From the IMG/VR virus record IMGVR_UViG_2526164646_000014: DNA of 15,256 nt, one strand, 5' to 3'. The notes beneath the pieces are model-generated. The model had not been told where the DNA came from. It saw nothing but the letters and a program-made list of their open reading frames with translations, and did no database searches. This document shows, in pieces, positions 11,204-14,259 of this stretch; position 1 is the first letter of the stretch; the number at the start of each line of letters is the position of its first letter. Source of the stretch: a virus (Duplodnaviria > Heunggongvirae > Uroviricota > Caudoviricetes). Made by a program: the position numbers and the translations under genes.

Positions 11204-12274
11204 TGACCTTTCTTAAAGTACTCCAACCTACTGAATCCTAAGGGATACGGCTTTAAGCCTCCTTGCAGAGTTACTTACTGTAACCCACTGTGTAACCCTC
11301 TCAGGGCATACAGACATATGATTCAGCTATCCAGTAGTCACAAACTTCCAGCAGTCTACTATCTCTACCAGCGTAACGGCGTCTACTACTTCCGTCTTAG
11401 GGTCAGACAATCAAACAATGATAGAATGACCTCAATATCATTACGGACCAAGGATAGACGCACCGCTATGGCTTACTCAAGGCACATAAAGGCAGCACTC
11501 AAGGCAATACACGCAGACAGACCCAACGCTACCTACGAGGAAATGAGGGAACACCTTAAGGACATCGCTGAGTGTGAACTGTCTATGGGCCGTTCAGATC
11601 TCTTTGAGCCTGACATGAGGGATATCTACCGGGACCAATACGGAGAACTTGGTGAGAGCCTTACCGATGCTCTGGCTAGTGAGCCGCTAAGCATTGACCA
11701 GCATCGTTACATCAATGAGGCCCTGAAGGTGCTAAAAGCCTGTATGAGGCGTATCGAAGCGGGAGACAGTCAGCCTCTGATAGATTACGTCGATCTTTTT
11801 AATGATATTGATAGGCAAGATAACCAAGCAGACTCTGTGTCCCTATCTGTTAATGCTCCAGAAGTAAAACCAGAAGTTACGCCTAGCATTACCATAGCGA
11901 GCCTCTTTGAGCAATACGAAGCGGAGAACTATCAGAACTGGAAGCCTGCAACCTTAAGGGAAAACAAGGCGTCACACGCTGCGTTAATCGAAATATTCGA
12001 CCATCTGGGTCTCAATGCAGACGCTAACAGGGCTGACATGCTTAGGGTCCGTGATGTGCTCCAGCAGTTACCTAGGAACCGTAAGCAGCGCTTCAAGGAT
12101 GTCCCACTTGCTGACCTGTTGAGCCGTGAAGATAAGACAGATTGTCTGGATGTCGTTACCATCAACAACAAGTATCTTATTAAGATGGCTGCTGTCTTTA
12201 GGTGGGCTGTGCGCAATGACTTGATTAAAAAGAACATGACTGAGGGTCTGGAGCTTAAAGTCCCTCTGAAGTGG

Positions 12275-13114
12275 TCAACAAAAACTGGCCACCGAGTTAG
12301 AGTTTTTCCAGTATCGATTTTCCGATTCGTTTGGGGGTAACCCACCGTTATATTCGTGCGGTCTTAGTGCGCTGTAATATCCAACGATATAGTCCGTTAT
12401 GGCGTGAGCTGCCTCGCTGAAGCTTACGTAACCCACCACCGGCATCCATTCGTTCTTCAGACTCCTGAAGAAGCGTTCCATTGGGCTGTTATCCCAGCAG
12501 TTTCCGCGCCGGCTCATACTCTGTCTGATCTGGTATCGCCACAATAACTGCCGGAACTGCCTGCTCGTATAATGACTGCCCTGATCGCTGTGGAACATCA
12601 CCCCGCCGGGCTTACCACGGGTTTCCCATGCCATTTCCAGCGCTTTCATGGTGAGCCTGCTGTCCGGCGAGAACGACATGGCCCAGCCCACTGGTTTTCT
12701 TGCGAACAGGTCGAGAACAACGGCGAGGTACGCCCAGCGCTTACCCGTCCAGATATAGGTCACATCACCGCACCACACCTGATTTGGCTCGGTCACGGCG
12801 AACTGCCTTTCAAGGTAGTTAGGGATAGCAACATGTTCATGACCACCACGTTTATACCGGTGAGTCGGCTGCTGACAGCTGACCAGCCCCAGCTCTTTCA
12901 TGAGCCTGCCAGCAAGCCAGCGTCCCATCTGGTAGCCTCTCCGGGTTGCCATTGTGGCGATGCTTCTTGCTCCGGCCGAACCGTGGCTGATGCCATGTAG
13001 CTCAAGTACCTGACTGCGTAATACAGCCCGTCTGCCGTCTGGTTTTTCAGGACGGTTTTTCCAGTATCTGTAGCTGCTGCGATGAACCCCGAACACATGG
13101 CAGAGTGTGACCAC
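12275..13114 (-). CDS. IS911 OrfB (DDE catalytic domain)
   Basis: 279-aa ORF with IS3-family DDE-region sequence (WCGDVTYI..., HSDQGSHY). Confidence 0.8.
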
Positions 13115-13140
13115 AGGATAATGCGCTCTGAGTTTCCCGA

Positions 13141-13441
13141 TTATCGAGAACTGTTCAGGGAGTCTGACATCAAGAGCGCGGTAGCCTTTTTTAATATTTC
13201 ATTCTCCATTTCAATGCGTTGTAGCTTTTCCTGAGCTCACGGATTTCAATTTGTTCCGGGGTAATGGGGGAGGCTTTTGGTGTTTTGCCCTGACGCTCAT
13301 CACGCAGTTGTTTGACCCATCTTGTCATTGTGGAAAGGCCAACATCCATAGCTTTGGCGGCATCTGCCACCGTGTATTTCTGGTCAACAACCAGTTGAGC
13401 GGATTCGCGTTTAAACTCTGCGCTAAAATTTCTTTTTTCAT
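13141..13441 (-). pseudogene. IS911 orfA with frame disruptions in two A-runs
   Basis: The HTH frame ([32 protein letters not shown]...) is out of frame with the ATG at 13441..13439 and with the leucine-zipper frame ([28 protein letters not shown], ending 13141); the changes sit in runs at about 13433..13438 and 13221..13224. Confidence 0.6.
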
Positions 13442-14259
13442 TGGAGCACCTGTGTTGTTCTGAGGTGAGCATATCACCTCTGTTCAGGTGGCCAAATTCA
13501 GTGTGCCACTTCACTCAGCGTAAAGCCTCAGGGGCCCGTAACGCCTTCTCTACGGAGCAGGTGGGGCAACTACTGGTCGCAGCTAAGGCATACTCTCAGA
13601 AGACCTCTGGTAAGCCGTATCATTATTATGTTACCGCCTTGGCTGCTATCACTGGGGCGAGACTCAATGAAATAGCCCAACTACAGGTCAAAGACGTCAG
13701 GACCACTGAGGCGGGAACCGTTTATATTCATATCAATGAAGACGATAGTAGTCTACCCGGTAAGAGCATCAAGAACGCTCATAGTGACCGCTGTGTGCCT
13801 CTGGTCGATGGGGCCTATGGTTTTATATTGGCTGACTTTATGGCGCTTGTAGAGACCCGTAGAGGCGCTGACGGTGATGACGCTATGGTGTTCGATGGTC
13901 TGCGTCTCATGAAGAACGGTTACGGTGAGCAGGTGAGTAAATGGTTTAATCGGACGTTGTTGCCTAAAGTCCTCGTAGACCGTAGCGGCTTAGCGTTTCA
14001 CTCGTTTAGACATACAGTTGCGACCCAGTTAAAACAACATGGGGTCGAGTTGGCGTATGCACAGGCGATCATGGGGCATAGTTCAGGGTCTATTACGTAC
14101 GACCGTTATGCTAAAGAGGTCGAGGTTGATAGGCTGGTCAATGTGATGGCTGATGTTTATAAGGAGACCTAGAGGAGACCATAGTCTAGGATGACACTTA
14201 CTACAGACCTGTGTGGTCATGTTTTTGACTCATAGTTTTCTCTACTTGTCAAGGATAAT

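Follow-up and report, generated by a model that had tools for sequence, protein, structure and literature searches.

An integrase gene split by IS911 in a lambdoid prophage belongs to a decayed member of an island family with T7-type promoters

The stretch of viral DNA analysed here (the window: 15,256 nucleotides, IMG/VR record IMGVR_UViG_2526164646_000014, Caudoviricetes) carries a large tyrosine integrase gene, int, that lies within a lambdoid prophage and is interrupted by an insertion sequence (IS). The locus raises the questions of how the gene was broken and to which mobile element it belongs. It is firmly established that 11318-14172 is the tyrosine integrase gene of an island, inactivated by one IS911 transposition with duplication of CTC. 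The best explanation of the locus as a whole joins this split integrase, the traits that its island shares with a family of related islands and a reading of that family as driven by phages, and we assign to it, as a whole, a probability of roughly 0.8.

The features that bear on the interruption are the following.

11318-12266, plus strand: 5′ part of int, codons 1-316 and the first base of codon 317; N-terminal and core-binding region
12264-12266: left CTC of the target-site duplication; the intact allele has a single CTC
12267-13513, minus strand: IS911 copy of 1247 bp, recognised by inverted repeats, Pfam, alignment to annotated IS911 and copy lengths
12275-13114, minus strand: IS911 orfB, intact, 279 aa, rve match in Pfam
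about 13191-13445, minus strand: IS911 orfA, HTH_Tnp_1 match in Pfam
13514-13516: right CTC of the target-site duplication
13517-14172, plus strand: 3′ part of int, from the remainder of codon 317 to codon 534 and the stop; catalytic domain

The assignment of the inserted element to IS911 is supported by its termini, which are imperfect inverted repeats that each begin TGAAGTGG, by the 3-bp target duplication and by an identity of ~98.7-98.9% to IS911-family elements annotated in RefSeq. As sequenced, only one of its two genes is intact: orfA, which together with orfB gives OrfAB by a programmed -1 frameshift, is itself frameshifted twice by 1-nt deletions within A-runs, when compared with intact 1249-bp copies.

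Joining 11318-12266 to 13517-14172, that is, removing IS911 and one CTC, yields 534 codons plus a stop, with zero internal stops or frameshifts. A preliminary description of this DNA had claimed precisely such a clean split and such a reconstruction, and the claim is borne out by the finding of an uninterrupted, identical allele. The proteins encoded at three IMG/VR loci (L037, L038 and L041) are 100% identical to the reconstruction over residues 1-534, and the insertion site in L041 reads GGAGCTTAAAGTCCCTCAGCGTAAAG, with one CTC, as in the uninterrupted allele that preceded the insertion. The flanking prophage of L041 is 99.68% identical to the window across 10,966 nt, and int differs between the two by three nucleotide substitutions that leave the protein unaltered; as these are silent, int has not decayed further since the arrival of IS911. 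An assembly chimera at the IS911 site was considered and ruled out by the proper target duplication and the matching empty site in L041. An exact search for the int/IS911 junction in contigs of one genome per species gave no match, a look-up of the exact product of the truncated 340-aa ORF gave none either, and none of the complete E. coli genomes covers at least 80% of the region. The entry point is between P316 and Q317; because this is upstream of the catalytic domain, the N-terminal fragment is devoid of any chemistry, and the C-terminal fragment is left without its start.

What the gene encoded is clear from the reconstruction. The in silico excision and profile search proposed in the preliminary description gave a match to Phage_integrase (PF00589) at residues 329-516 (E 4e-18, 66.1 bits against a cutoff of 27.1), and a homologue 96% identical to the window integrase matched the PHROGs integrase family phrog_1 at E 3e-47. 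As for a putative N-terminal domain of the arm-type DNA-binding kind, a match to DUF6538 at residues 15-63 reached 25.1 bits, below its 27-bit cutoff. Seven sequences were aligned: the window integrase, five E. coli homologues (78-96% identity) and the integrase of Pseudomonas phage vB_PsyP_3MF5 (36%). Residues R365, K402, H478-x-x-R481, H504 and Y514 are invariant among them, so that the R/H-x-x-R/Y motifs are intact, as had been stated, and the catalytic tyrosine is present. Since Y511 is not conserved (it is F in the 3MF5 integrase), the nucleophile is Y514. The search of the PDB returned no sequence relative of the integrase and that of NCBIfam generic relatives only. The comparison with integrases of T7-like phages that had also been suggested proved pertinent, as these are indeed the nearest phage-borne relatives, with 30-33% identity over ~97% of the length.

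The second question, that of ownership, is answered by the DNA on either side of the left junction.

10893-11203, plus strand: prophage tRNA cluster Met/Ile-CAU, Arg-UCU, Thr-UGU and Gly-UCC (ARAGORN)
11129-11203, plus strand: tRNA-Gly(UCC), the integration target (ARAGORN; three-way alignment)
11204-15229, plus strand: remnant of an integrative island; the left end abuts tRNA-Gly and the right side was removed by IS1

Upstream of int, the lambdoid prophage shows replication, nin, rusA and Q-type genes, followed by the four tRNA genes. In an "empty" prophage of E. coli O121, Q and the genes for tRNA-Ile, -Arg, -Thr and -Gly are followed directly by the holin gene. According to a three-way alignment, the window is identical to this empty prophage until the CCA end of tRNA-Gly at 11203, and from 11204 it has ~94% nucleotide identity to the chromosomal glyU island of E. 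coli 21AR0133. This switch of homology at the CCA end implies that the integrase is that of an island which had integrated into a tRNA gene carried by a phage, and it upholds the earlier suggestion of an island or satellite integrase rather than the prophage's own. The left junction is exact; the right end lies beyond the window and was probably lost behind IS1, as in L041. Judged from its sequence, the prophage tRNA-Gly(UCC) site resembles the normal target of the family, the chromosomal glyU gene for tRNA-Gly(CCC): 15 of the 18 positions at its 3′ end (11186-11203, TTCCCGCTGCCCGCTCCA) are as in the core of the glyU attachment (att) site. Strand exchange must have occurred within the shared GCCCGCTCCA, because the tRNA-Gly gene retains its three phage-specific bases.

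Islands of this type are common. A degenerate-pattern scan of one genome per species recovered 17 close relatives in 14 genera of Enterobacterales, namely Klebsiella, Lonsdalea, Rouxiella, Pectobacterium, Morganella, Enterobacter, Buttiauxella, Citrobacter, Escherichia, Shigella, Shimwellia, Proteus, Serratia and Edaphovirga. Every tRNA detected at the loci of the relatives was tRNA-Gly(CCC) (11 of the 16 loci scanned), and 13 islands, five of them from E. coli, have direct repeats of 17-30 bp at both ends and measure 4.2-7.6 kb. In a set of 5426 complete genomes of E. coli, 219 contain the non-coding/rha stretch of the window, always in the chromosome, and 70 contain the promoter-bearing stretch, always at the same chromosomal locus.

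The architecture of the family was assessed by clustering the open reading frames (ORFs) of 21 sampled relatives. On one strand there follow int, often a gene that overlaps it, a promoter cluster, a spacer of ~550 bp, often a second promoter cluster, a leader of ~100 nt, a DNA-binding gene (Rha, KilA-N-like or others), a gene of 58-76 aa, a coiled-coil gene (DUF6971 or its analogue F6) and, finally, a shell gene of 330-400 aa. The integrase is present in all 21, while the other parts are common but not universal. The islands have few sigma-70-like sites, and a terminator, strong in Klebsiella, lies after the shell gene. In searches of Pfam, PHROGs, NCBIfam and PADLOC, no island gene had a domain of a replication initiator or primase or of terS/pac/cos. 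Likewise, neither the window nor the complete relatives of 4-7.6 kb contain a single-subunit RNA polymerase, a T7-type DNA polymerase/primase or structural genes.

The trait that links these islands to particular phages is found directly after int in the window.

14260-14282, plus strand: T7 class III promoter, TAATACGACTCACTATAGGGAGA, 23 of 23 consensus positions, predicted +1 at G14277

This promoter is oriented away from int and towards rha. Its 23-nt sequence would be expected in the window by chance ~4e-10 times, as a matter of arithmetic, and the phage-database matches to the surrounding region are to T7-group phages only. Promoters for T7-like single-subunit RNA polymerases, from one to four per locus and on the coding strand, occur in 15 of the 21 relatives, in the window and in L041 (three in the latter), and they are absent from four loci that extend well beyond int. 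Across 22 loci, the 34 kb downstream of int contain 41 CACTATAGG cores on the coding strand and 0 on the opposite one, against 1 in the remaining 725 kb; the 41 come from related loci and are consequently not 41 independent events. Nevertheless, the specificity regions are not the same from lineage to lineage, and this favours maintenance of the promoters over inheritance alone.

The promoter types found across the islands match those of T7, K11/KP32, Kayfunavirus-type and ICP3-type phages. Several E. coli islands have T7-type sites. In K. pneumoniae ATCC 13883 (L008, 10261-10851), four promoters of three specificities lie within 600 bp: two are of K11/KP32 type, one is an exact T7 type and one is of AATTAGGTAG type. 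They match 66 Klebsiella phages, one annotated K11 promoter being among the matches, and the arrangement suggests a multi-helper sensor, to judge from the promoter sequences. Other classes, present in Citrobacter, Enterobacter, Buttiauxella, Shimwellia and a second E. coli/Shigella lineage, match T7-like phages of Citrobacter, Cronobacter, Enterobacter and Shigella, and the Proteus island has a promoter of the ICP3/N4-vibriophage type.

Downstream of the promoter, the window continues with repeats and a structured leader.

14477-14612, plus strand: AT-rich array of CTTAAAG-type repeats, 47-nt unit, 2.9 copies
14665-14895: iteron field of direct and inverted repeats
14665-14739: direct CTATAGGTCTCT-type repeats, within the iteron field
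14761-14802: CTCTATGGYC repeats, within the iteron field
14848-14895: three inverted CCTAGAGAGACCCT copies, within the iteron field
14948-15045, plus strand: conserved leader of ~100 nt, a long imperfect hairpin just 5′ of the first island gene

The primary replication origin of T7 consists of two promoters and an AT-rich region. In the island, too, an AT-rich tract follows a promoter, and 14580-14630 aligns with an AT-rich segment located after tandem phi1.1A/B-type promoters in Teseptimavirus phages, where the matching stretch is intergenic and 3′ of the RNA polymerase gene. For instance, in phage Ebrios it is flanked by two tandem T7-type promoters, which directly precede it, and by the next gene, which starts shortly after it. 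The resemblance of the tract to a T7-group origin is suggestive, as far as an alignment can make it so. By contrast, the spacing from promoter to AT-rich array is ~200 nt, larger than in the T7 origin, and the matching segment is short and low in complexity. A search of the non-coding region of the window for homology to the terminal repeat or the concatemer junction of T7 matched only the promoter and the AT-rich stretch.

In the iteron field, GGTCTC/GAGACC reaches a density of 11.3 per kb, compared with a background of 0.42 per kb. These repeats are too distant from the att site to be arm sites of the integrase; possible binding partners are Rha, a packaging factor or a replication factor. 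The leader is 77-92% conserved in 15 islands (the window, L002, L005-L008, L012, L014-L017, L020-L022 and L030), irrespective of the gene downstream. The same three-tier hairpin is predicted at 5 loci despite different stem sequences (z from -2.6 to -4.8), and RNAalifold found only 2 fully compensatory pairs. We presume a likeness to the RNase III processing hairpins of T7 transcripts. A search of Rfam with the non-coding region of the window gave nothing credible.

Two further components of the family are seen in the relatives. The gene that overlaps the 3′ end of int is RAZR/PD-T7-4 in 11 of the 21 (PADLOC, E ~1e-102). Of PD-T7-4, Vassallo et al. (2022, PMC9519451) remarked only that it "often overlap[s] an integrase gene"; under its newer name, RAZR, it was shown to be an RNase that is activated by assembly around the portal ring of T7 and T3 (Nature 2026, PMC13017515). 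The words integrase, satellite and mobile genetic element are absent from the text of the latter, and both papers are silent on a satellite, on the promoters and on the capsid-like gene. In the window island there is no ORF for a ZnF-HEPN (DUF4145) protein after int, and the promoter region follows int directly.

The other component is the pair formed by the coiled-coil gene and the shell gene, present in 13 of the 21 relatives and absent from the window, whose island is truncated in rha. The shell protein has no match in sequence searches of Pfam, PHROGs, PADLOC, NCBIfam and the PDB, and hhalign detected no profile similarity between it and a T7-like major capsid protein. An AlphaFold2 model built from 41 homologues (pLDDT 67, pTM 0.63) gave 147 matches in BFVD at E <= 1e-3; in the best 50 of these 147, the named ones are nearly all phage capsid or head proteins. 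The shell protein is placed in the HK97 fold by structure prediction alone. As the shell gene is always preceded by the coiled-coil gene, their order looks like the arrangement expected of a scaffold-capsid pair. A 6.6-kb Logan contig with the shell gene was considered as a free circle of such an island and rejected, since it is an integrated copy with flanks.

From these traits, we would give even odds to the island family being a satellite or a defence islet driven by T7-like phages. More tentatively, and at somewhat less than even odds, we propose that the islands are undescribed and widespread ~6-kb satellites of virulent T7-like phages, which would target glyU, sense their helpers through arrays of promoters for the helper polymerase, in some islands of several specificities, recruit the replication machinery of the phage by an origin mimic and make or redirect capsids by means of scaffold-like and HK97-fold proteins of their own, with RAZR as a portal-sensing cargo. 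T7-like phages shut down host transcription, and it is for this reason that a switch operated by the phage polymerase makes sense. In this model, the islands would be silent until a T7-like phage brings its RNA polymerase, which would then transcribe the island operon and, in the T7-type variants, prime replication at the origin mimic formed by the promoter and the AT-rich tract. The element might then leave in capsids made or redirected by its own shell protein, as a satellite, or sabotage the phage, as a defence system. The signs of helper dependence that would place the islands in the satellite class are the phage RNA polymerase promoters and the origin-like tract, both indirect.

Several observations weigh against this proposal. 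The CACTATAGG core is absent in four sampled islands (Rouxiella, two Pectobacterium and Morganella), and the Proteus promoters match those of vibriophages best, not those of known Proteus phages. The match to the origin region spans 50 nt, is AT-rich and of low complexity and has weak E-values (5e-4 to 6e-3), and genes for a portal, a terminase, a protease or a replication initiator were recognised in no island. Additionally, the firing of the promoters and the replication, excision and packaging of the islands are predictions, and the window itself holds int, one promoter, repeats and a truncated rha, so that the functions proposed for the family are extrapolated from relatives.

How the family should be read also depends on the alternatives. 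The main rival, which we find possible but rather unlikely, is that the islands are anti-phage defence islets and not satellites. The promoters would then be an infection-triggered switch for toxic or assembly-poisoning cargo, and the HK97-fold protein would be a decoy or a size-redirecting subunit, not a vehicle for island DNA. Given RAZR, defence and satellite roles are not mutually exclusive. However, RAZR precedes the phage-type promoters, which do not drive it, and was reported to work from its native promoter (PMC13017515). Moreover, the most conserved of the downstream genes are the coiled-coil and HK97-fold pair, which resembles scaffold and capsid, att repeats bound the islands, which are spread over 14 genera, and the T7-type variants have an origin-like tract. 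It is improbable that the integrase and the T7 promoter are, instead, the last remains of a temperate T7-like prophage whittled away by deletions and IS activity. Phages with a T7-like body and int at the right end of the genome do exist (Warsawvirus 3MF5 and an IMG/VR contig with a T7-type RNA polymerase), their integrases are the nearest among phages, and the promoter and AT-rich tract are T7-like. Against such an origin, the complete relatives are discrete units of 4.2-7.6 kb between direct repeats, with one gene order in 14 genera, and genes for an RNA polymerase, a DNA polymerase, a portal or a tail are found in none. There is no profile similarity between the shell protein and a T7-like major capsid protein, the phage promoter near int in 3MF5 points into int from downstream while those of the islands point away from it, and the promoters of a single island can represent two to four specificities, a range that would be superfluous for any one phage.

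The remaining alternatives concern the window rather than the family. As int lies inside a lambdoid prophage, downstream of its replication, nin, rusA and Q-type genes and tRNA cluster, it might be taken for the prophage's own integrase gene, or for a chromosomal gene unrelated to any mobile element, but this is very unlikely. The gene is located between the Q-tRNA region and the lysis genes, where the related prophage has nothing, and its homologues head glyU islands in genomes without a prophage at that site; the exchange of prophage identity for glyU-island identity at the tRNA CCA, together with the empty O121 prophage, refutes the notion of the prophage's own int. Finally, exact T7 consensus promoters are frequent in vectors, and the window has several one-base homopolymer deletions relative to its sister sequence, both of which would be compatible with an artefact, either an assembly chimera or contamination with a cloning vector. 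We consider its probability negligible: in 70 of the complete E. coli genomes, the promoter stretch occupies one and the same chromosomal locus, it is also present, with other phage-specific variants, in other genera, and its flanks are island sequence, not vector. Vector contamination was accordingly rejected as the source of the promoter.

For the copy in the window, any such function belongs to the past, as indicated by the features at its right side.

15056-15229, plus strand: 5′ fragment of rha (Phage_pRha family), ~58 codons, Pfam E 6.9e-10, truncated by IS1
15230-15256: terminal inverted repeat of IS1, running off the window; its reverse complement is identical to 7042-7068, the end of the IS1 copy inside the window

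L041 shows the same rha/IS1 junction, followed by IS1 and IS600 with no more island genes, and its int is intact. The IS1 event is therefore the older one and the IS911 hit is specific to the lineage of the window; the island was probably already crippled by the truncation of rha when IS911 arrived. The window island is a fossil: without a working integrase and the distal genes, neither a satellite nor a defence role is possible for it. IS911 has entered islands of this family in at least three separate hits, at int in the window, in the iteron field of L041 (12355-13603) and within the second promoter cluster in the glyU islands of Shigella flexneri and E. coli ECMA0423 (L019/L020, ~10880-12130). 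Five homopolymer runs of the window lack one base each, three in comparison with L041 (3606, 5958 and 14252) and two in comparison with intact IS911 (~13232 and ~13441). These shortfalls look like long-read under-calling, and the frameshifts of the IS911 orfA may be sequencing errors.

Other observations were made along the way. The prophage backbone (1-10200) is also broken by an IS2-like copy at the start of the window, by IS1 (~6301-7068) and by an IS600-like copy (~8908-10175), the last of which has a 17-bp indel relative to L041 at 9229-9245. Such a load of insertion sequences is typical of Shigella-like genomes and suggests a strain of that kind. The tRNA at 10893-10969 is called Met (CAU) by ARAGORN, and the identical gene in the O121 prophage is annotated as tRNA-Ile by RefSeq; it is probably a lysidine-modified tRNA of the Ile2 type. 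The apparent 66-aa ORF of rha terminates at a stop codon within IS1. Near its start, a CAACAACCA repeat (15062-15103, 4.7 copies) encodes the N-terminal (QQP)n tract of Rha; the alignments of this segment to L041 and L001 contain indels, and its copy number may vary. In L001, the 18-bp glyU att repeat occurs three times (20028, 27370 and 37534), so that two different islands lie in tandem between glyU and the ETT2 type III secretion genes: the first is of this family, and the second measures 10 kb and has an integrase of 650 aa. In a more distant element on an IMG/VR contig (L035, 161-7145), the order is HNH, a small gene, DUF6971, a shell homologue (~34% identity), Rha and integrase, which implies that the module of DUF6971 and shell gene also travels with Rha and integrase in other arrangements.

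The split integrase is itself routine genome decay, and its value is as a pointer to the island family. The family is present in at least 14 genera of Enterobacterales and, within E. coli, in ~1-4% of the complete genomes, and it keeps exact promoters for T7-family RNA polymerases beside a capsid-like gene. If the islands are driven by T7-like phages, they would constitute a natural parasite or sensor system of T7, which has been studied better than any other virulent phage. They would also place the RAZR defence protein in the genomic context that it has lacked, and would exemplify a simple way for a host element to remain expressed after a phage has shut off host transcription. Searches of the full-text literature, whose coverage is incomplete, gave no account of such islands as a group, nor of the phage promoters or the capsid-like gene that they carry, and this is weak evidence of novelty.

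Compared with known systems, the inactivation of int by IS911, a member of the IS3 family, follows what is seen in the IS-rich genomes of Escherichia and Shigella: the TGAAGTGG termini, the 3-bp duplication, the orfA/orfB transposase and the simple disruption of a gene are all shared, and nothing is unusual except the two 1-nt deletions in orfA. The integrases of T7-like phages (vB_PsyP_3MF5, a Warsawvirus; phTUNS; G11) have the same long architecture, 30-36% identity over almost the entire length and all the catalytic residues, and much of their N-terminal region can be aligned with that of the window integrase. By contrast, integrases of the 3MF5 type sit at the right end of 40-kb phage genomes, whereas the window integrase heads an island of 4-7 kb that, unlike those phages, has no T7 structural or replication genes. 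As for the RAZR/PD-T7-4 locus, the integrase whose 3′ end RAZR overlaps in the relatives is of the same family, although the window island differs in being without RAZR.

Similarities to the satellites of other phages are looser. The PICMIs and PLEs of Vibrio are small integrative elements as well, and the parts of their descriptions that were accessible present their activation by virulent phages as thought or shown. PLEs differ in being larger and specific to ICP1, and PICMIs, described as "minimalist" and reduced in gene content, are said to have no capsid-remodelling genes. The use of promoters of the helper RNA polymerase does not form part of those portions of either description, and what PICMIs and PLEs have in common with our islands is only a tyrosine integrase. 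The cf-PICIs, such as EcCI2, are much larger, have temperate helpers and carry a portal, a protease, head-tail connectors and terminase components. Against this description (10.1101/2022.09.08.507074), the islands are distinguished by a size of ~6 kb, by having the coiled-coil and shell pair only, and by promoters for the RNA polymerases of virulent T7-like phages.

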